Positions 31,787-52,790 of a stretch of DNA of 64,000 nucleotides are shown piece after piece (position 1 is the stretch's first letter; every line of letters begins with the position of its first letter). A model generated the notes under the pieces. It did not search any database, was not told the origin of the DNA, and saw nothing but the letters and a program-made list of their open reading frames with translations. The translations under genes and the position numbers were made by a program. Source of the stretch: an uncultured Planctomycetaceae bacterium (lineage in GTDB: Bacteria > Planctomycetota > Planctomycetia > Planctomycetales > Planctomycetaceae); assembly GCA_963813715.1 (NCBI GenBank), contig CAWFAK010000005.1, positions 608,001 through 672,000 of the forward strand, in the 5' to 3' direction.

Positions 31787-32969
31787 GAGGGGATCCGGGA
31801 ATTAGGCGCTCTAAGAGAAAGGGTCTCCGTGGGTTAATGTTTTTTTGTCACAAAGAACATTGGCCCCACGGGAGACCCAAGGATGGGACATTCTACCCGC
31901 GCCTCAGCAAGCCTGCATGCGTTGGTGAAGTTGATGATTCCTGTGTGCCAGCGTGCTGAGAGAGAGCACCCGCGTCGCGGTCCGGGACGACCACCGGAGA
32001 TTGCTGATTGGGTCATGCTCGTGCTCGTAACCGTCGCGATTCTCAAATACCGTCGGAACAAATCCGCCCAATACCGATTTCTCAGTCAAAACCGAGCCAA
32101 GCTTTTGGAATGGATCGGGACCACCCGGTTCCCGTCACGCAGCACGTACTGTGAGCGTTATCGAAGGGCCCATCGCCTGTTTCAGGTTGCCGTTCGTCTT
32201 CAAGGCAGGTGTCTGTTGAAGCATCAAGTCGGCGACGCACGTTGTGTGGCTGTCGACAAAAGCCTGATTCGGTCGTTGGGTCCGAAGTGGCCAAAACGGC
32301 TGCGCATCCAAGGAAAGCTTTTGCGGGGTGTGGACCGTGAGAGCACGTGGGGCTATTGCAAGCACCATGGTTGGGTCCAGGGCTACTCCTACGAAGTCCT
32401 ACTTTCTGCGGGGAAAAAGGGACTTGTTGTGCCCCTCTTGGCGTCGGTGAATCAGGCTCACTGGAGTGAGCACCGGTCATTCCCCGAAAAGATTCCACAC
32501 TTGCCTCGACCCACCAAGTACGTCTTGGCGGATAGCGGCTACGACGGCAATGACCACGCTGACGCCATCGAGCGAGATTCGCGTGGCAACCCGACAGGCC
32601 GGCGGTTTTTATGCCCTCAAATCTACCGAGGAGGACATCGTCGCCAGCCGGGACCATTTCACGACGCACATCGTGCTCGAAGAGAAGTCCGCACTCGCCG
32701 GGAGGCGCGATATCAGTACTTCCAGACGAAGACAGCCCGGCTTCACTATTCGCGGCGAGGCAGAACCGCCGAGCCGTTCCACGAATGGTTCAAATCCACA
32801 TTCCAACTTCACGAGCGAGCCTGGCACCGTGGCTTGGACAACAACCGCACCCAAGTTCTCGGCGCCCTGTTCGCCTACCAGCTACTCGTTCGCTACAACC
32901 GCCGAAAACACAAACACAACGGCTCAGTTCGCTGGATCCTCGACGGCCTCTGAATTCCCGGATCCCCTC
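31787..32969 (+). mobile_element. Insertion sequence with a DDE transposase (IS4/IS5-like)
   Basis: Perfect 17-bp TIRs GAGGGGATCCGGGAATT; flanking direct repeat GAGCAAGCTC. Confidence 0.9.
31883..32953 (+). CDS. DDE transposase
   Basis: GRP motif; VAVD, LADSGYD and AEPF catalytic motifs; lies within TIRs. Confidence 0.85.
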   Translation: MGHSTRASASLHALVKLMIPVCQRAEREHPRRGPGRPPEIADWVMLVLVTVAILKYRRNKSAQYRFLSQNRAKLLEWIGTTRFPSRSTYCERYRRAHRLFQVAVRLQGRCLLKHQVGDARCVAVDKSLIRSLGPKWPKRLRIQGKLLRGVDRESTWGYCKHHGWVQGYSYEVLLSAGKKGLVVPLLASVNQAHWSEHRSFPEKIPHLPRPTKYVLADSGYDGNDHADAIERDSRGNPTGRRFLCPQIYRGGHRRQPGPFHDAHRARREVRTRREARYQYFQTKTARLHYSRRGRTAEPFHEWFKSTFQLHERAWHRGLDNNRTQVLGALFAYQLLVRYNRRKHKHNGSVRWILDGL

Positions 32970-33617
32970 GAGCAAGCTCAACCGTGGCACCCCAGGCAAA
33001 TCTTCGCTCGGAAGGCACCCCTTACTGGCGTGGGCGTCTTTCGACGGCCTCGCCCGCCGCGTAGAAAACTGATCTTGGACGAATCGCATTTTTGTGGCTG
33101 AATGGAAGAAGCGACTCTGTGCGCCGACGGCTGAGCTTGTGCGCGGAGTGCTCAGCTGCGTGACCGTGCGGCGACGTTGCCGAAGCGTCATCGATTCGGG
33201 ACGGGCTACCGGTCAGTTTTCGATCCAGGCGAGTTGAAGTCCGGTCCGGACACATTCTCAGAGGGACAGGATTGGGGGACGGGACTGGGACGGGACCGGA
33301 TCGGAATGGGAGGGGCGGGACGCGGGACGGGACACGTTGTTTCATCGAGAGAATCCCGGCGAATTTGCCCTCGACCGGCTCGGTCCGGACACGCGAGCGG
33401 GGGACGGGACCAGTCAAAAAAGGTCCGGTCCGGACACATTCCGTCACAGCCAAACGGACCAGACCGGGAACATTTTCACCACAAAGGCACCAAGGCACAA
33501 AGAAATCCGACTTGCTGGGTAATGTTTGCTTTGTGTGTGACCTCCGGCGGGACGAATTGAAGTTGGGACGGGACACAAACACCGGGACGGGACTGATTTC
33601 CGGTAGGGCAGGCTCTG

Positions 33618-34969
33618 TGTTGAGACCGGACACATGGGTGACAAGTGTTCGGACACATGGGTAACAGGTTTGGCGGGGAAGGCAAAGGCTGCGTGAGCGT
33701 AGCGAATGCAGCCTTTGCCTTCCTCGCGTCGGAAAATCACGTCCCCTCCGCGTTCCGGTCTCGCAGATCAATGCGGGCAATCTTCTGCGAGCAATAAAAC
33801 ACCTGCCAGACTCCCTCGGTCGTCGTCGGCCGAAGAGCGACGGCTTCGCCCGAGAACGCCTCGCTGATCTTGATCACTTGTCCTCGAAAACTCAGTTGCC
33901 CCACGGGATTCACCTTGCGGACTTCGTCTCCCTCGTCGTATTCGATCGGCGGAAGATGCTCCGGAAACTCACGTCGGCTGACCACGTAACGACTACCAGG
34001 CACTCTCAGCCCCAAGGCCTCGTGAGGACGCTCGTGGTTATACGTCTGACGCCAACGATCGAACTCCCGCTGCACCTCCCCAGAGTTCGCGAAGGCCCGG
34101 CCGCGCAACACTTCCGCCTGCAGCGTGCGGTGAAATCGCTCTTCCTTCCCTTGCGTCTCGGGGTGGTAAGGGCGGCCATGGATCACGCGAATGTTGTGTC
34201 GCAACAACCAGACCGACAGCTTCGTGTAACCTCCGCGACGGTGGGTGACCGCCCAGGGCGTCCCGTTGTCCATCAACATCGACCAGGGAAGGCCGTAACG
34301 TCGAAAGACGCCCTGCAGACTCTCCCGAACGGTCTCGGATCGCTGGTTCAAACAGGCCCGCAGCCCCAAGGAGTAGCGAGAGTGATCGTCTGTGATCGTC
34401 AACGGGTGGCAGCGACGACCGTCGACCATGCGGAAATCGCCCTTGAAATCCATCTGCCACAACTCGTTGGGCGCCTCCCGCTCAAACCGCTGCACGGGGG
34501 CACGCCGGAGTGACTCCTCCTGCTCGATGCGGCCATGACGACGCAAAATCGCCGTGATCGTGCTGGCGGCCGGGACCGCTTGACGCCCCAGGGCCAACAG
34601 ACGGGCCCGCAGCTTGCGACCTCCCCAGACCGGGTGCCGATCCCGCAGCTCCAGCACCTCCGCTTCAATGGCCGCGCTCGTCGGCTCGCGAAAATGCCGA
34701 GGACGACGCGAACGATCCACGCACGGTTCGCCCAATCGAACCCGGCCTAACCACTTGTAGCCGGTCTTCCGCGAAATCCCAAACCGCCTGCACAGCACAG
34801 CGACCTTCGAATTTGGCGACGACGCCAAACGGCAAAACTCTTCCCGCATCGACACAACGTCACACTCCTGCCACGGCATCCGTCTCCCTCCTGGAAAGGA
34901 AGACCTCAGCCTACAAAAAGTGTTACCTATGTGTCCGAACGACTGTTACCTATGTGTCCGGTCTATACA
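33618..34969 (-). mobile_element. IS481 family element
   Basis: TGT...ACA ends with repeated GGACACAT(G/A)GGT(A/G)ACA motifs; 5-bp TSD CTCTG. Confidence 0.92.
33737..34879 (-). CDS. IS481 transposase
   Basis: MPW start, ISRKTGYKW, WQMDFKG, MDNG, GKEERFHRT, YNHERPHEAL. Confidence 0.95.
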   Translation of the reverse strand: MPWQECDVVSMREEFCRLASSPNSKVAVLCRRFGISRKTGYKWLGRVRLGEPCVDRSRRPRHFREPTSAAIEAEVLELRDRHPVWGGRKLRARLLALGRQAVPAASTITAILRRHGRIEQEESLRRAPVQRFEREAPNELWQMDFKGDFRMVDGRRCHPLTITDDHSRYSLGLRACLNQRSETVRESLQGVFRRYGLPWSMLMDNGTPWAVTHRRGGYTKLSVWLLRHNIRVIHGRPYHPETQGKEERFHRTLQAEVLRGRAFANSGEVQREFDRWRQTYNHERPHEALGLRVPGSRYVVSRREFPEHLPPIEYDEGDEVRKVNPVGQLSFRGQVIKISEAFSGEAVALRPTTTEGVWQVFYCSQKIARIDLRDRNAEGT

Positions 34970-35388
34970 CTCTGCCTGCCGCCGACATGGGGAGCGGGAC
35001 GGGACACATTGTTTCACCGGGAAACAAGCGGCATTTGTGCGGAGCGAAACGGGACGGGATCGAATTGAGACAGGCGCGACGGCGAGCGCAGCCTGCCCCA
35101 CAAAATTCAGACGCAGACTTCACCTTTCCAATTTAGCGGGACGGGACACGTTGTTTCACCGAGCCGATCCCGGCGAATTTGCTCCTTCGCTCAGCCCGCC
35201 AAGCTCGATCGAGCGCGGCGGGACCGCGAGCCCGCGGGGACCGCAATTGGATCGCCCGCCGCCCGCGAGCCGGTCTGCTGGTGGTGGGGATCCGTTTTCA
35301 CATAAGGGAGAAAAGGATCCCCAGCAGCGCGATGCGGCAACTGTCCCGCGGTGACAAGAAATTCATCCCCGGCGGGGTGGGGACGCTT

Positions 35389-35680
35389 TTATTTGATAGG
35401 GGACTCCGAAGTTGGCGCCACCGACTGGCTTTGCCTAGAAAACCGCGTTAGCGCGCCTGGATCAGCGTCCGTTCCAGAAAATATATCGCTCAACCCACGG
35501 AGAGACGGGCTTCCCATTGATTGTGTGCCAGGGCATTGGCAGACAGCCAACGCGCAGCATGTCGGCAGTCGCTGAGGCAGCGATCCGCTGGGCACTTAAC
35601 AGCGCGGACGCGACGATGAACAAAATCGCGACCCAGTTGCGAGAGGATCTTCGGTAGGAGTGGAGTAGATCGTCACTCAT
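35389..35680 (-). CDS. Small leaderless hypothetical membrane or secreted protein (cassette cargo; stop at 35462, or 35389 if frameshifted)
   Basis: TACAAT-N6-ATG start; hydrophobic segment WVAILFIVASALL. Confidence 0.5.
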
Positions 35681-35743
35681 GCCGCGATTGTACCGGCAGC
35701 GAGTCACCGGAGTGACCAGATTCTGCACAGCACCGACTCGGAC

Positions 35744-35851
35744 GGGTGGCGGGGGCGCTCCGCTTCGCGGAAGCCCCTGTCTTGTCGTGATCCTTGCCCG
35801 CTGAGGTAGGCCGATGTTCCGGGGCTTCCGCTCCGCGGAGCGCCCCGGCCA
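35744..35851. repeat. GGGTG-footed REP inverted doublet; second copy split by IS110
   Basis: 35744-35779 is close to the reverse complement of 35819-35851 plus 37252-37254. Confidence 0.8.
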
Positions 35852-35859
35852 TCTATGAG

Positions 35860-36126
35860 AAGGGTAGCGTCAAGGGTTGGTTTTTGCGTTTGAAGTGGTG
35901 ATCTGGGCGATGCGGTACGCTCAACCATCTATTCGGGATCACCAACGGTCTGGAACAGGTCCGTCGATGTCGCCAGGAAGCCGACTTTCGAGAGACGCCC
36001 CATTCACCCTTCGAAGGTCGCTCTTTTGAGGGAACGCCTTCATGGCCGGGGGCGGGGTCGTCTGTGGGTCGTCGCAGCGCTTTCGATCGATGTTTTGTTT
36101 TGTGCTCTCCTGCCAAGGTCAGGGAT
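35860..36126 (-). ncRNA. Candidate bridge/seek RNA region of the IS1111-like element
   Basis: Position in the long non-coding end; inferred from family behaviour only. Confidence 0.45.
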
Positions 36127-37146
36127 TTAAGTCGGTTGCTGGCTGAGCGAGTAGGGTTGGCCCGTCTTCAAGATCGCTGTCATCAGGCACAACAACCGGC
36201 GGGCCACGGCGACGATCGCCTTCTTGGCACGCACGCGCAACTTCAATCGTTCATAAATCCGACGCCAACGTAACGAGTGCTGAACCAGCCGCCAGGCGGC
36301 TTCGACCAGCGTCGAGCGCAGCAGCGTCGAACCGTTCTTCTCCAGGTGCAGCTCCCGACTCTTGCCCGCACTCTCGCGTTGACCCGGTGAGAGCCCTGCG
36401 TAAGCGACGACCCGCTTTTGCGAACCGAAGCGATCAATGTCTGCCAACTCGGCCAGCACAACTTCGGTGGTCACGAAGCCCACTCCGGGGATCGTCCGCA
36501 ACAGCGTCCGCGCTTCCTGCTCGCAAAGCGGCGCCGCCTCGGCGAACTCCTTCAGCCGGGCGTTGACGGCCAGCAGCTGACGCCTCCCGAAGTGCAACTC
36601 TTCGACCATTTGATCCACGGCGAACCGATCCGCTCCCAAGAGAGGCACTTGGGCGAGATACGCCAACCCGTCCACGGTGAACAGACTGGGACGATCCGCG
36701 TTGTAGTCGCAGAGAATGCGGCGCAGACGGTTCTTGACGGAGGTCAATCGCCGTTGAACGCCGCCCCGCTGACGCACCAGTCGTCGATGCTCATGCTGCC
36801 GCGGAGTCGCCCGGTAAGACGTCGGAATCATGTCCAAGGCCAGGAACTCCGCGAGGATTTGCGCGTCGAGCCGATCGCTTTTACGCGTGCTCTCGGCAAT
36901 CACACGCAGCTTCTTGGGGTGGGCCAACAACACGCGATGGGCCACGGGCTCGATCAATCGCACGAACCATTCGTAGCTGGCGGTCGCTTCCACGACAGCC
37001 TCGAACTCCCCGAGCCTCTCGAAAAATGCGAGGATGCTCCGCTCTTCGCCACAACGCACGGTCCGACGCTCCAAGACCCGCCGCAATTGGTCGACGACGC
37101 AAATCGTGATAGTCTGCTTGTGTAGGTCGCAGCCGGCAAATTTCAT
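36127..37146 (-). CDS. IS110 recombinase/transposase
   Basis: GCDLHK, VEAT, KSDRLDA, TIPGVG, AYAGLSP..RESAG. Confidence 0.95.
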   Translation of the reverse strand: MKFAGCDLHKQTITICVVDQLRRVLERRTVRCGEERSILAFFERLGEFEAVVEATASYEWFVRLIEPVAHRVLLAHPKKLRVIAESTRKSDRLDAQILAEFLALDMIPTSYRATPRQHEHRRLVRQRGGVQRRLTSVKNRLRRILCDYNADRPSLFTVDGLAYLAQVPLLGADRFAVDQMVEELHFGRRQLLAVNARLKEFAEAAPLCEQEARTLLRTIPGVGFVTTEVVLAELADIDRFGSQKRVVAYAGLSPGQRESAGKSRELHLEKNGSTLLRSTLVEAAWRLVQHSLRWRRIYERLKLRVRAKKAIVAVARRLLCLMTAILKTGQPYSLSQQPT

Positions 37147-37400
37147 GGCGGTGTCCTTTTGTGGAAACGGTTTGCAACAAACTCCGTTTACCACGTTCAA
37201 GCACAACCACCAACCGGCTCGGCCTACCTCTTACCGCTCCTCATAGCTTCACCCCTGACGCGCCGCCGGATCCAAAAGCCGCAGCGTGTCAGGGGCATGC
37301 CCCTGGGTTTTGAGGGGTGACGCCGATACACTGCGCGAAGATTGCACGGGTCCTGGGATGATTGGCGCGAACAGCCTTTTTGCCTACGGAGAATGTCGAG

Positions 37401-48968: not shown

Positions 48969-49308
48969 CGGCTCTCCTCGCTACCTCAAAACTGCTGCCT
49001 GATTCTGCACAGTTTACCCGCCTTTGTGCTTACCCGCCGTTGTGCCCACCTCGACACGCCGGGAGCGCGGCCAGGCTCACGCGACTGGATCGTCCATCGC
49101 AATTTGGCACCTCCCAGCGCATCGCTTGGATGGGCCTGTCCTGCAATGCATGGCCACGCAAAGCCATGGGCCATGGCACTCCACCGGCCACTTAGGCAGT
49201 AGGCGACGGGGTGACTGGGGTCCATGTGTTAGCCGCGCGCCCAGGTCCACACCGCCGGTCTCCTTGTTCAAATGAAAGTGTCCGGACCGGGTAGTGGGGG
49301 CGTTTGAA

Positions 49309-49701
49309 TTACGGTTTTTCGCGATTGGCACGGGAATTTGTGGAGCGAGGGCGCATCGCCTTGTCGACGTTCCAGCCAGAGAGATGGTCTCGGAACTGGC
49401 CTGCATGCTGGTCCCAGATAAGGTCGAAGTGAAGGCGGAGCGCTTCGCCTCGCGCGTCGTCAATCCAGAATTCGACGCGGTTAGTCAGTGTTGAGCCTCC
49501 GGTTTGAGGCCATCCAATCTTCATCGCATCGCAGGACTCGCTAAAAGACATTCCCGTCTTCAGCCGTTGCTCGGCAATGCGGAGAGGGCTTTCGGCAAGT
49601 GGATTGCCACCGATGCTCGCGATGAAGAGCGCCGCGAGGACCATGATACCGAGACATTGGGGAACGGCCTTGATCCAGGCCGTCGGTACTTCGTCGCTCA
49701 T
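49309..49701 (-). CDS. Hypothetical membrane-anchored protein, 130 aa (cassette cargo B)
   Basis: ATG at 49701; N-terminal TM segment; TAA next to the cassette end. Confidence 0.6.
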   Translation of the reverse strand: MSDEVPTAWIKAVPQCLGIMVLAALFIASIGGNPLAESPLRIAEQRLKTGMSFSESCDAMKIGWPQTGGSTLTNRVEFWIDDARGEALRLHFDLIWDQHAGQFRDHLSGWNVDKAMRPRSTNSRANREKP

Positions 49702-49705
49702 GCCG

Positions 49706-49849
49706 TCATTCCGCGCGACCTTCGTAGTCGAGGATCCCCCGAACCCGATAAGACCCATATTGGGCGTATGATGCGAGCAAAGCGAACGCGAAGGCGAGCA
49801 CTGTGAGCACGACAACCGCAATGAATACGTATCGCTTGCTTCGGCTCAT
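49706..49849 (-). CDS. 47-aa single-TM peptide (cassette cargo A)
   Basis: TAGAAT-N6-ATG leaderless start; MSRSKRYVFIAVVVLTVLAFAFALLAS... Confidence 0.5.
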   Translation of the reverse strand: MSRSKRYVFIAVVVLTVLAFAFALLASYAQYGSYRVRGILDYEGRAE

Positions 49850-49879
49850 GCCGTCATTCTAGCGGCGGCCACCCCCCGG

Positions 49880-50504
49880 ATTCAGACTTCGCCCTAAAAG
49901 CTATCCGCTGCGCCTCTTAGCACCGGTCTAAATCCGAATTGTGAAGATCAGACCGGACCTGACTCGATTGGCAGTGACGCTATCTAAGCCAATCACGCCT
50001 GAGCCAATCAGGGGGGTGGCTGCGTCGAGGGGTCAGGCTCGCCCCCAGGTCACAACCGCCGGTCTCCTTGTTCAAATGAAAGTGTCCGGACCGGATTCAG
50101 ACTTCGTCCTAAACTGCAGCCATTGCACCTCTTAACCCCGGTCTGAATCGGAATTGTGAAGATTAGACCGGACCGGACCTGACTCGACTGGCTGCGACGA
50201 TATCCGGGCCAAGCGGGAGAGTAGCTTGGTCGAGCCGTCAGGCTCGCCCCGCGGTCCCGGACCGCCGGTCCCTGTCTGTAAATGAAAGAGTCCGGACCGG
50301 ATTCAGACTTCGCCCTAAACCGCAGCTGCTGCGACGCTTAACTCCGGTCTAAATCCGAATTGTGAAGAGGAGACCGGACTGGACCTGACTCCGATGTTGT
50401 GCTCGCAGTCGAGCCCAGCTCGGGTGGCTGGGGTCGAGCCGTCAGGCTCGCCCCCAGGTCCGCAACCGCCGGACTCGTTGTTCAAACGAAAGTGTCCGGA
50501 CCGG
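49880..50504. repeat. Tandem array of three 204-215-bp units, plus a partial unit at 49241-49290
   Basis: Units begin ATTCAGACTTCG at 49880, 50095 and 50301 and end AAAG(T/A)GTCCGGACCGG; 49251-49290 is identical to 50055-50094. Confidence 0.92.
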
Positions 50505-50705
50505 ACCTGACGTCATCCGGCTACCGACCACGCCGTCGATGCCCATCAATGTTGCGGCCATTTCATCCCCGGCGCAAGCCGATCTCGGCCGTCACGACGG
50601 GGCCAAACTCCATTCTGCCACAAATTGCCAACCAACCAAGATCGGTTTTCTACGCCGCTCAGTTTCTCGGTCGCTCGGCCGGAATGCAGACGGGAGATTT
50701 ACCGG

Positions 50706-50743
50706 GGGTGCCAGGGTTGAGCTTGCTCGAGCGTGCTCTTAAC
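50706..50743. repeat. GGGTG-footed REP hairpin; uninterrupted relative of the IS target at 31764/32992
   Basis: GGGTGCCAGGGTTGAGCTTGCTCGAGCGTGCTCTTAAC. Confidence 0.75.
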
Positions 50744-50796
50744 GGGTTCAGCAACCGTCGTCATCAGGCGGAAGGAGCAAAGGGGCAGACGCACGG

Positions 50797-52790
50797 TCAA
50801 TCGCCGTTCGGGCCGTCGATCACCAGCGTGCAATCTGGCAGGCTCTCGAGGAACTGTCGGCCGTACGGTTTGCTGCGAATCCGCGGATCGAGAATCGCGA
50901 CCTGCCCGGTGTCCGCCTTGCGGCGAATCAGGCGTCCGAAGCCCTGCTTGAGTTTGATCACGGCCTCGGGCACCTGGTATTCGATGAAGGGATTGCCCCC
51001 TCGCTCACGAATCGCCTCCAGCCGCGCCTCGAGCAGCGGATGATCGGGCACGCTGAACGGGAGCTTGGTGATGATCACGTTCTGCAGCGCGTCGCCGGGC
51101 ACGTCGACTCCCTGCCAGAAGCTGTCGGTGCCGAACAACACGCCGGCGGCGTCCTTGCGGAAGCGTTCCAACATCAGCGAATTCGGCAGCCCGTCGGACT
51201 GGCAGTAAAGCGTGTATTGATGCCGGGCGAACCATTGAGCGAGTCGCTCGGCACAGCTCTTGAGCATTTTGTAACTGGTAAACAGCACAAACGCGCGGCC
51301 GTGCGTTTCCGTCACATGGTGTTGGATGCGTTCGCAGACCGCCTGCTCATACTCACGGGGATGGGCGGCCGGGTCGGGCATGCCGTCGGAGAGGATCAAT
51401 CGCGCCTGACGCTTGAAGTCGAACGGGCTGCCGAGCCGGCACTCGTCGGCGGCGCCAGCCCCCAGGCGGTCCTTAATGAAGTCGAAGCTGCGCTTGCCGA
51501 CGGCGAGCGTGGCGCTGGTGAGGATCACCGTCTTCACCCGGTCGAAGAGTTCGCTCTTGAGCACCGGGCCAACTTCGATCGGTGCACAGTGCAGCTCGGT
51601 GCGCGGCCGTTTTCCCTGTCGGACCTCGATCCAGTAGACGCAACCGGGCAACGACTGCTTGAGCCAGGCCGCCAGCGATTGGCCCAGCTCGATACAGCGC
51701 TGGGCGGCGGCCGTCAGCTCGATCGACTGTTCTTCGTTCACGATCTCCTTCGCGGCAGAGTTCATCGTCGCTGCCAGCTCGGTGAGCGCGGGGGTGACTT
51801 TGTTCACGACGTCGAGCGGTTGTCGGAGGCGGCCATTTTCGCTTCCGTGAACCTCGTGCCAGTCGCGGAGATCCTCGAGCAAGTCCCGCACACCGTGGCG
51901 GATGCGGTCGACCAGCCGCTGCGCGTCGAGAGTTTGTGGTGCACCAGCAGGCCGCGCTGCGTGTAGTCGTTGTAGAGCTTGTTGAGCAGGTAATCGAACT
52001 GTCCGCTGGTGAGCGTCAGTCCCATCCGGTCGCCGGCGACCGCTTCGACGGTGTGAGCTTCGTCGAGCACGACGACTTCATAATCGGGCAGCAAGCTCAC
52101 CCCTTCCCGCCGCAACGCCAGGTCAGAGAAGAAGAGGGCGTGATTGACCACCAGGACGTCGGCGTCCCAAATCCGCCGCCGCGCCTGGTAATAGAAGCAG
52201 TCGTTGTACGTGGGGCATTTTTTCCCCAGGCAATTGCCACGATCGCTAGCGACTTCGTCCCAGACGTTGGGGAACGGCCGCAGCGACAAATCGCTGCGCG
52301 TGCCGTCGGTCGTCCGCCGCGACCAGTCGAGGATCGTCTGCAGCTGCTCGAATTCCTGCTCCTGAAAGAAAATCGATTTGGCCCGTTCGACGGCGGCGTT
52401 CATCCGCCGCAGACTGATGTAGTTCCCGCGCCCTTTCGCCAGCACGCACGAGAACTCAACCGGCAGCACTGAACGCAGAAAGGGGATGTCCCGCGTGACG
52501 AGCTGTTCCTGCAGGCTGATCGTGTGGGTCGAAATGACGAGGGGCTTGCGGGGGCGTTCCGTGGTGCCCGTCGGATCGTGTTCCGCGGTGACTGCCAGAA
52601 TGGCCGGGACGAGGTAGGCGAAACTCTTGCCCACGCCAGTTCCCGCTTCGACCAGCAAATGCCTCGACTCCGCGATGGCCCGCTCGACCGCTTCGGCCAT
52701 TTCCAGCTGCTGTGGCCGGTGTTCGTAACTGTCGAGGCGCCGGGCGATTCGGCCGTCACTGCCGAGCACGGAGGTGGCATTGAGCGTCAA
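50797..52790 (-). CDS. dinG: DinG/YoaA family ATP-dependent helicase (frameshift near 51900)
   Basis: EAGTGVGKS, DEAH, TSATL, FWQGVD, QGFGRLIR. Confidence 0.92.

Follow-up and report, generated by a model that had tools for sequence, protein, structure and literature searches.

A 64,000-nt stretch of contig CAWFAK010000005.1 from an uncultured Planctomycetaceae bacterium (GenBank assembly GCA_963813715.1, positions 608,001–672,000 of the forward strand; hereafter the window) contains a solitary small-gene cassette at 35345–35710, which we refer to as cassette 1. Cassette 1 is probably a member of a family of small-gene cassettes that is largely confined to one genus and whose members would be leaderless, shuffled at a conserved 5' module and, in part, carried by IS1-like insertion sequences. 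The original prediction, made from the letters of the window, had paired cassette 1 with a second cassette at 49.3–49.9 kb of the same window (cassette 2, hereafter the comparison cassette) on the basis of likenesses at both ends. We find that only the 5' module connects the two cassettes and that the match of their tails is a coincidence. The source genome (G000), that of a soil planctomycete, comprises 7.49 Mb in 18 contigs with 63% GC and is 82.6% complete, and the window is chromosomal, carrying dnaA, dnaN, gyrB, rnpA, and dnaJ; at the gathering threshold, Rfam identified a tRNA-Val alone in the whole window. The comparison set included 11 other genomes of the same genus, G002, G003, G006, G007, G008, and G009 among them.

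Results

A Conserved 5' Module Heads Cassette 1 and Many Other Small ORFs

On the minus strand cassette 1 starts with CCGG (35710–35707) and TGACTC, followed by the 25-mer GCTGCCGGTACAATCGCGGCATGAG (35700–35676), in which a −10-like TACAAT (35692–35687) lies six bases before an ATG (35680–35678). This 25-mer agrees with GCCGCCGCTAGAATGACGGCATGAG at the comparison cassette (49869–49845) at 20 of 25 positions and with equal spacing, exactly as had been predicted, and the copy numbers of the two variants that the cassettes represent place the agreement far beyond chance. Variant A, defined by the 15-mer TAGAATGACGGCATG, has 26 exact copies in this genome and 40 with at most one mismatch, whereas variant B, defined by the 15-mer TACAATCGCGGCATG and seen at 35.7 kb, has 8 exact copies and 13 with at most one mismatch; by our estimate a random 15-mer is expected about 0.01 times in 15 Mb of two-strand sequence. 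Cassette 1 holds both the B 15-mer and a B 17-mer exactly. A profile built from 78 copies returned 109 matches at E ≤ 10, and register could be assigned to 57 of the matches with E ≤ 0.01; we put the family at about 57–72 module copies in this genome.

The module is composed of a GC-rich stretch, TA[GC]AAT, [GC][AG]CGGC, and ATG AGC GAC. Conservation of variant A starts roughly 10 nt before the −10 box (aATCCGCCGC), continues for some 20 nt past the beginning of the open reading frame (ORF; ATG AGC GAC GAA CCG AAG AA), and ends abruptly on both sides. TAG, TGA, and TGA, located immediately before or at the ATG, give each of the three frames a stop. Among the 29 ORFs in the genome that start with MSDEP, 24 use exactly the codons AGC GAC GAA CCG, for which codon usage predicts 3.75%. 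The shared codons show that what is conserved, or homogenised, in the module is the nucleic acid itself and not the peptide alone.

All 11 other genomes of the genus contain variant A, with 3–54 exact copies each. It is missing from the 13 other genera of the family that were searched and was found just once in 16 genomes of other families. Variant B was found in 5 of these 11 genomes and, outside the genus, in a single other genus. A control with the reversed pattern gave no match in any of the 41 genomes searched. When one genome per GTDB species (185,579 species) was scanned with a 21-mer, 80 loci were recovered, all but five of them titled Planctomycetaceae or Planctomycetota metagenome-assembled genome. 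On these searches the module family appears to be largely confined to one genus. Listings of the literature on leaderless promoters of Planctomycetes and on Planctomycetes integrons and attC sites contained no description of the module. Within the genome, modules are concentrated near other repeats: the enrichment at GGACAC repeats that the original prediction had proposed to look for is found, with 24 of 215 repeat cores within 1.5 kb of a module compared with 3.7 expected (6.5-fold), and 9 of the 46 cores of a 205-nt repeat lie equally close compared with 0.8 expected.

Cargo of Cassette 1 and of the Family

The 72-aa product of cassette 1 begins with MSDD, has one hydrophobic stretch, WVAILFIVASALL, and carries the conserved motif HTINGKPVSPWVERYIFWNG at its C-terminus. 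It matches no Pfam family, and its five homologues among 5.8 billion clustered proteins are all hypothetical, with 53–77% identity; three of them begin with MSDEP. Two paralogues in this genome each stand behind an A-type module, and the protein clusters with five module-led ORFs from arrays (C9 and C12 of G000, L082 and L092 of G009, and L086 of G007). Because 13 columns of the alignment are invariant, including the C-terminal H.I.G..V..W...Y.FW, we regard the ORF as a real protein-coding gene.

As had been claimed, the cargoes of cassette 1 and of the comparison cassette are unrelated. Across the family, 160 module-led ORFs of at least 40 aa, compared after removal of the first nine residues, form 106 clusters, of which 81 are singletons and the largest has 19 members. 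The cargo ORFs are 11 to 280 aa long and are often organized in same-strand arrays of up to 23 small, mostly orphan ORFs; array ORFs have a median length of 70 aa, and by a crude test 75 of 129 contain a transmembrane-like segment. Pfam families were matched above cut-off by one ORF in a set of 44 and one in a set of 93 (one DUF3303 and one DUF3553). Cargo consisting of immunity genes, as in the rAID arrays discussed later, was considered and rejected, the Pfam searches of these 44 and 93 ORFs having returned nothing immunity-like. Our guess is that the cargo comprises accessory envelope or conflict-related small membrane proteins.

The Module as Candidate Promoter and Coupler

The arrangement TANNNT-N6-ATG occurs at 357 sites genome-wide compared with about 260 at neighbouring spacings, and before ORFs of at least 80 codons at 162 sites compared with about 85, which suggests that leaderless-type starts are a modest general feature of this genome. 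The caution that accompanied the original prediction, namely that the 5' motif may partly be a generic leaderless promoter, therefore holds for the architecture but not for the identity over 25–40 nt, which is specific to the family: CGGCATG is found in 43 of the 217 small ORFs (18–149 codons) that follow TANNNT-N6-ATG compared with 6 of 84 long ones (at least 150 codons), and the long ORFs have no consensus outside TANNNT and ATG.

We then compared 132 junctions between consecutive modules in arrays of this genome and of 11 loci from four other genomes. Where the gap to the preceding ORF exceeds 40 nt, 50 of 78 junctions have a perfect TA[GC]AAT, but where it is 40 nt or shorter the box is perfect in only 9 of 54 (odds ratio 8.9, p = 5e-8); 14 junctions have the form TGAcggcATG and six are overlaps of 4 nt. 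This distribution fits a module that would act as a promoter at sites needing a new transcript and as a stop/restart coupler between abutting genes. A hairpin with a T-run lies 13–38 nt upstream (most often 19–22 nt) of 14 of 84 TAGAAT modules, compared with 75 of 3000 random positions (2.5%). Modules and 3' elements are covered in Logan assembled contigs from soil and rhizosphere metatranscriptomes (shares 0.06–0.12). Such contigs do not resolve where transcripts start, which strand they come from, or whether the cover reflects genuine transcription. In three of the four metatranscriptome runs the cargo of ORF2 in the comparison cassette has no cover.

Breakpoints at the 5' Module

In an all-against-all BLASTN comparison of 134 module copies with 300 nt on each side, similarity extending beyond the module was one-sided in 25 of 26 pairs, being restricted to the downstream side in 17 and to the upstream side in 8, with a single pair similar on both. 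The similarity of downstream-only pairs begins between −42 and −6 relative to the ATG, and that of upstream-only pairs ends between +4 and +23. Three loci of one genome (L034, L042, and L047) have about 200 nt of upstream similarity, of which the 80 nt displayed are identical, and then continue into three different ORFs; conversely, L008 and L023 have the same downstream ORF behind different upstream sequences. The same cargo is also found behind an A or a B module. Cassettes are thus exchanged between and within genomes with breakpoints at the 5' module, for which homologous recombination would account.

Arrays adjacent to dnaG in two species, our genome (C15, ~99.8–109.0 kb) and G003 (C1, ~768.9–775.0 kb; L083), have a common right flank with 77–87% identity. 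Similarity inside the two arrays is limited to modules, 3' elements, and IS1-like genes, and they have no cargo DNA in common. The site beside dnaG appears from this comparison to be a conserved hot spot.

A Family 3' Element and a Probable IS1-Like Carrier

The family has, in addition, a 3' element that begins at the stop codon, T(G/A)A-ACTCCCGTGCCAAYCGC, and continues with about 20 variable bases and then TTTCAAACG-N-CCCCACTACC. With at most one mismatch, its core has 92 copies in this genome and the 11 array loci. Of 31 copies in this genome, 22 have a same-strand module no more than 1 kb upstream, as against 1 with an opposite-strand module, and 12 of 145 module-led ORFs stop directly at the element compared with 8 of 20,000 random ORFs. 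Because only these 12 end directly at it, the element is not obligatory for the family.

The distal half of this element (...TTCAAACGCCCCCACTACC) belongs, in several arrays, to a pair of inverted repeats, the other of which reads GGTA[AG]TGGGGTAC.TTTGAAAT. The order left inverted repeat (IRL), IS1-like transposase, cassettes pointing to the right repeat, and right inverted repeat (IRR) is found at C8 (490741–493672), C15 (in reverse), L082, and L085, and C7 has a 0.8-kb copy with the same repeats and one cassette but no transposase. For both the C8 and the C7 copy the insertion point is a unit junction of the 205-nt tandem repeat, and the same 9 bp, CGGTCCGGA, flanks both. The transposase matches the Pfam model DDE_Tnp_IS1 with 36.6 bits (cut-off 24.1). 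The repeats and the 9-bp duplications are seen directly, and the arrays probably travel as passengers of IS1-like elements, by transposition. A simpler view of the 3' element, as a plain inverted repeat of a neighbouring IS1-like gene, had been dropped when comparison of three IS1-like copies in C15 revealed no common termini, until the IRL/IRR pairs were found; the inverted-repeat pairs and duplications are those seen at C8 and C7.

Units of the 205-nt repeat, which flanks several cassette arrays, begin with (G)GTCCGG-TCCGGACACTTTC.. and end with ..GAAGTCTGAATCCGG, and about 80 further starts exist genome-wide. Inside the large array of C15, between the IS1-like transposase and the cassettes, an ORF resembling a PIN domain and an upstream helix-turn-helix ORF (105949–107184, minus strand) look by eye like a toxin-antitoxin pair.

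The Ends of Cassette 1 and of the Comparison Cassette

The letters reported for the other end of cassette 1 are present on the plus strand, where CCGG (35369–35372) is followed by CGGG and GTGGGGACGCTTT (35377–35389), but their homology with the tail of the comparison cassette did not withstand closer inspection. The pattern AAAG?CG[CT]CCCCAC-N3-4-CCGG, read on the gene strand, has four copies in the genome, three of which are canonical (...ACTCCCGTGCCAA...TTCAAACGCCCCCACTACC joined to the 205-nt repeat), whereas the fourth, at cassette 1, lacks both parts. The cassette 1 copy forms a terminator-like hairpin (table 1) whose relatives amount to one copy each in G003, G006, and contig C16; the two relatives inspected lie in repeat-rich DNA without cassettes, that of G003 in a GGGGATC...GATCCCC context resembling repetitive extragenic palindromic (REP) sequences. 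The common CG[CT]CCCCAC...CCGG is therefore a resemblance of two different G/C-rich repeats.

Each end had also been described as lying next to a minus-strand TAA. At the comparison cassette this TAA (49309–49311) is indeed the stop of ORF2, but at cassette 1 the TAA beside the hairpin is not the stop of the cargo ORF; the true stop is the TGA at 35464–35462, after which the family 3' element (T(G/A)A-ACTCCCGTGCCAA...TTTCAAACG.CCCCACTACC) is absent. Copies of the IS1-like inverted repeats are likewise absent near 35.3–35.8 kb. The CCGGs at the 49-kb cassette are there because the flanking 205-nt repeat and its target duplication supply them, and they do not mark cassette ends as had been supposed.

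The right junction of the comparison cassette, CCCCCACTACC followed by CGGTCCGGACAC, is the same as in the C8 and C7 copies of the IS1-like element, whereas at the left junction, GAATCCGG followed by GGGGTGGCCGCCGC, most of the left repeat is missing; the comparison cassette is most simply interpreted as a right-end remnant of an IS1-like transposon. Its ORF1 has homologues in G006 (95% identity), G009 (87% and 85%), and G002 (84%). The matches in G006 and G009 span the first module to the second (query 233–235 to 411), and that in G002 spans the ATG (query 252) to 407, close to where the second module ends. Apart from one weak match, ORF2 has no counterpart outside this genome.

Genomic Neighbourhood of Cassette 1

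In G002, the closest relative, both cassette loci are syntenic, and the flanking MacB-like and helicase proteins are 97% and 95% identical. A strain-specific segment that includes cassette 1 is replaced there by a short sequence (table 1), and ~49080–50790 of the window, comprising the comparison cassette and the 205-nt repeats, by about 50 nt. Both differences are replacements without clean duplications, with which gain here or loss there would be equally compatible.

The insertion sequence (IS) of the IS110 family next to cassette 1 has an end that matches six other copies with 94.5–99.3% identity. This copy terminates inside or beside the GGGGCGCTCCGC...GCGGAGCGCCCC repeat pair, which may be the preferred target of this IS. 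On the other side, an rve-type IS ends at 34971 and has four further copies at 100% identity; two IS copies, DDE_Tnp_1 (31883–32953) and rve/IS481-like (33737–34879), are absent from the syntenic region of G002. The ~5 kb around cassette 1 are best read as a recent insertion pile-up. The GGACAC repeat found here looks like a REP-like intergenic family or one of miniature inverted-repeat transposable elements. Cassette 1 belongs to the cassette family by its module and cargo, is solitary, and shows no sign of how it moved; it retains the 5' module and cargo only, within a strain-specific repeat patch beside the IS110 copy.

Next to the comparison cassette, a DinG-like helicase (50797–52790, minus strand) is encoded by two overlapping ORFs (Helicase_C_2, 50797–51891; DEAD/DEAD_2, 51804–52790). 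Here the open frame that contains the match spans 426 aa, compared with 660–793 aa in 9 of the 10 relatives with a full-length match, the exception being G008 with 465 aa, which suggests that the split results from a frameshift or an assembly error.

Table 1. Features at and around cassette 1 and the comparison cassette (window coordinates)
Feature	Position	Strand	Basis or remark
B-type 5' module, GCTGCCGG-TACAAT-CGCGGC-ATGAG	35676..35700	-	Read from sequence; family copy counts
Cargo ORF, 72 aa plus TGA stop (35464-35462)	35462..35680	-	Five homologues, 13 invariant columns
Predicted 3' signature: terminator-like hairpin, both strands	35364..35385	.	~75 nt past stop; 2 sites vs 0.5 expected in shuffles
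REP-like palindrome, GGGGATCC...GGATCCCC	35271..35339	.	Dispersed family, dozens of copies
Palindromic repeat pair, GGGGCGCTCCGC...GCGGAGCGCCCC	35739..35851	.	Dispersed family, dozens of copies; between candidate cassette promoter and IS110 end
IS110-family insertion sequence, transposase 36127-37206 (PF01548, PF02371)	35806..37292	-	Absent in G002
Strain-specific segment (cassette 1, palindromes, IS110)	35331..37292	.	~77 nt instead in G002
GGACAC repeat, GCGGGACGGGACACGTTGTTTCA...	33322-33368, 34994-35040, 35136-35182	.	Core GGGACGGGACA, 215 genome copies
A-type 5' module, GCCGCCGC-TAGAAT-GACGGC-ATGAG	49845..49869	-	Read from sequence
ORF1, 47 aa	49706..49849	-	TGA stop inside next module (GAA TGA cggc ATG)
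ORF2, 130 aa, MSDEV...	49309..49701	-	Final 9 codons read from 3' element, usual TGA lost
Canonical 3' element, ATTCCCGTGCCAATCGC...TTCAAACGCCCCCACTACC	49290..49337	-	Distal half is right inverted repeat of IS1-like transposon family
~205-nt tandem repeat, three units	49876..50504	-	Further partial unit 49220-49289 on opposite cassette side; insertion target

Discussion

A Model for Cassette Expression and Exchange

With TACAAT six bases before the ATG, transcription of cassette 1 would most likely begin with the A of the start codon or a base adjacent to it, producing a leaderless mRNA that is predicted to encode a 72-aa single-pass membrane protein and to end at the hairpin at 35364–35385. 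In the family as a whole the module would serve as a portable expression adaptor, being a promoter when the preceding gene is distant and a TGAcggcATG coupler when genes abut. Because the same sequence heads dozens of unrelated ORFs, it could double as a homology patch for the exchange of cassettes, and arrays would also spread as passengers of IS1-like transposons whose right inverted repeat is embedded in the family 3' element.

Several observations weigh against this interpretation. With regard to expression, a simple sigma-70 scan found no full −35/−10 promoter at either cassette, although the −35 preference or consensus of the lineage may differ, and assembled RNA contigs can neither show 5' ends nor exclude carry-over of DNA, which leaves the promoter roles to be deduced from sequence. 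Many cargo ORFs are short and lack any protein evidence. The compared genomes are kin, and counts across copies or junctions are consequently not independent; moreover, breakpoints inside an identical module do not separate homologous from site-specific recombination. The assignment of the carrier to IS1 is weak, the NCBIfam IS1 model scoring 61 bits, below its cut-off of 100, and the transposon architecture was found in only about 5 of 17 arrays examined, cassette 1 not among them. Cassette 1 itself has no DNA-level relative in the 11 genus genomes, and neither a family 3' element nor a terminal inverted repeat nor a target duplication was found at it, so that the paired end signatures originally proposed are not supported. 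The case for its mobility rests on one empty-site comparison, which involves a complex replacement and could equally reflect a deletion in G002. The proposal of a family of mobile, self-expressing mini-cassettes accordingly survives with respect to the family, its diverse cargo, the exchange at modules, and the IS1-like carriage of arrays, but no sign of a mobility mechanism was found at cassette 1 itself.

Alternative Explanations

One alternative is that cassette 1 is an ordinary small gene behind an ordinary leaderless promoter and that its likeness to the comparison cassette reflects constraints on the −10 box, spacing, and start that both have in common. Such a reading draws on the genome-wide over-representation of TANNNT-N6/7-ATG, on the spurious 3' likeness, and on the missing DNA relatives of cassette 1 in the genus. 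It does not, however, accommodate the skew of CGGCATG toward small rather than long ORFs, the recurrence of exact 15- to 25-mers in dozens of copies with frozen synonymous sites, the genus-limited distribution, or the presence of the cargo family behind A-type modules in arrays elsewhere, and we consider it quite unlikely. Tandem duplication within a single paralogous family, which kept its promoter and N-terminus while the rest diverged without exchange, would explain why the largest cluster (19 of the 160 ORFs; MSDEPKKR..W..LYPLSxGP) has the look of an ordinary expanded family and why 47 pairs have short N-terminal similarity past the module. Yet the number of clusters and singletons, the range of cargo lengths, identical upstream ORFs joined to three downstream ORFs, one downstream ORF with differing upstream sequences, and the same cargo behind either module type all speak against it; we judge this explanation very unlikely.

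The arrays also recall integrons, which have been reported in Planctomycetes, or more specifically clusters of attC sites lacking an integrase (CALIN), with the conserved junctions as attC sites. Same-strand arrays of up to 23 small orphan ORFs with conserved junctions, and the turnover of cargo at a conserved chromosomal site, would be expected of such a system. However, the integrase model TIGR02249 reaches at best 78 bits against a cut-off of 265 in this genome, which is 82.6% complete, and Pfam revealed no recombinase among 47 ORFs flanking 10 array loci. An attC site needs about 55 nt or more, for which short junctions are too small: 54 of the 132 junctions measure 40 nt or less and 20 measure 4 nt or less, attC sites being judged here by junction length. 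In addition, the conserved part takes in the start codon and first codons. An integron is in our estimation highly improbable. A new cassette-capture system, with a dedicated site-specific recombinase or nuclease that recognises the module and with promoter activity only secondary, is unlikely. In its favour, breakpoints are confined to the module, conservation acts at the nucleotide level including synonymous sites and mostly in one genus, and there is partial inverted symmetry around the −10 box (GCCG...CGGC). Against it, no candidate enzyme is linked to the arrays, and the −10 box decays where a promoter is unneeded, as expected of a promoter and not of a recombination site. Homology of 25–40 nt, for its part, is near but not below the lower limit for RecA-type exchange.

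Implications

We therefore continue to favour a family of small-gene cassettes exchanged at their 5' modules. More tentatively, and with less than even confidence, we propose that the module is a new kind of adaptor, in which a promoter, three-frame stops, a start, and first codons within 25–40 nt would make any short ORF expressible, and which would also be the genus-wide crossover site for hundreds of orphan mini-genes, operating with no integrase and with IS1-like carriers, as a cellular counterpart of the promoter cassettes of phages described later and a possible cradle of small membrane proteins. If this is true, a bacterial chromosome expresses and reshuffles a pool of orphan small-protein genes by means of a repeated regulatory module and not an integron. 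A principle known from phages would then extend to cellular genomes, linked with leaderless translation and passenger-carrying insertion sequences. The module would also provide a testable promoter and translation-start element for Planctomycetes, a lineage with poorly known promoters, and a tractable system for the origin and spread of new small membrane proteins.

Comparison with Known Systems

Leaderless genes of Actinobacteria and Deinococcus have TANNNT 6–7 nt before the start and no Shine-Dalgarno sequence, and only the −10 box and ATG are common to the genes, whereas the identity among unrelated genes here covers 25–40 nt and takes in synonymous sites. Integrons and CALIN resemble the arrays in their same-strand small orphan genes, lineage-specific junctions, and fast turnover of cargo at a fixed site; the differences are that no integrase exceeds the cut-off here, that junctions are often too short, and that the conserved unit is at the 5' end with its own promoter-like sequence and ATG, in place of reliance on Pc. 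The rAID-1 immunity-gene arrays of Bacteroidales comprise as many as ~30 small genes, and the repetitive DNA between these genes has been called "reminiscent of integrons" (10.1101/471110). They differ in having a conserved XerD-family recombinase and recognisable immunity homologues, neither of which was found here among the 47 flanking ORFs and 137 cargo ORFs, respectively.

Transporter IS (tIS) are insertion sequences with passenger genes (PMC9330008), and the IS1-like carriers resemble them in that inverted repeats enclose a DDE transposase and passengers, with a 9-bp direct repeat at two copies here. The passengers here are distinct in being arrays of mini-genes that would be self-expressed and that have their own exchange module, internal copies of the right repeat follow many cassettes, and cassette 1 lies outside such an element.

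Promoter-early stem-loops (PeSLs) of T4-type phages are conserved regulatory cassettes between small orphan genes, and recombination at these repeats shuffles the genes (Arbiol et al. 2010, PMC2839356). The likeness extends to the repeated short regulatory cassettes, the small orphan genes, the hypervariable regions, and the shuffling among close relatives, for which the breakpoints at repeats between close relatives found here are a parallel, and the 14 of 84 TAGAAT modules with a hairpin and T-run here may be terminator-plus-promoter composites. In contrast to the hyperplastic region of a T4-type phage, the setting here is a planctomycete chromosome, with dnaA, dnaN, gyrB, and rnpA in the window, and the start codon and first codons are part of the repeat, which is apparently leaderless without a ribosome-binding site, may act as a stop/restart coupler, and is probably carried in part by IS1-like elements. 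By analogy, PeSLs would be the nearest working counterpart, and the module family may be regarded as a chromosomal, leaderless variant of promoter-cassette shuffling.

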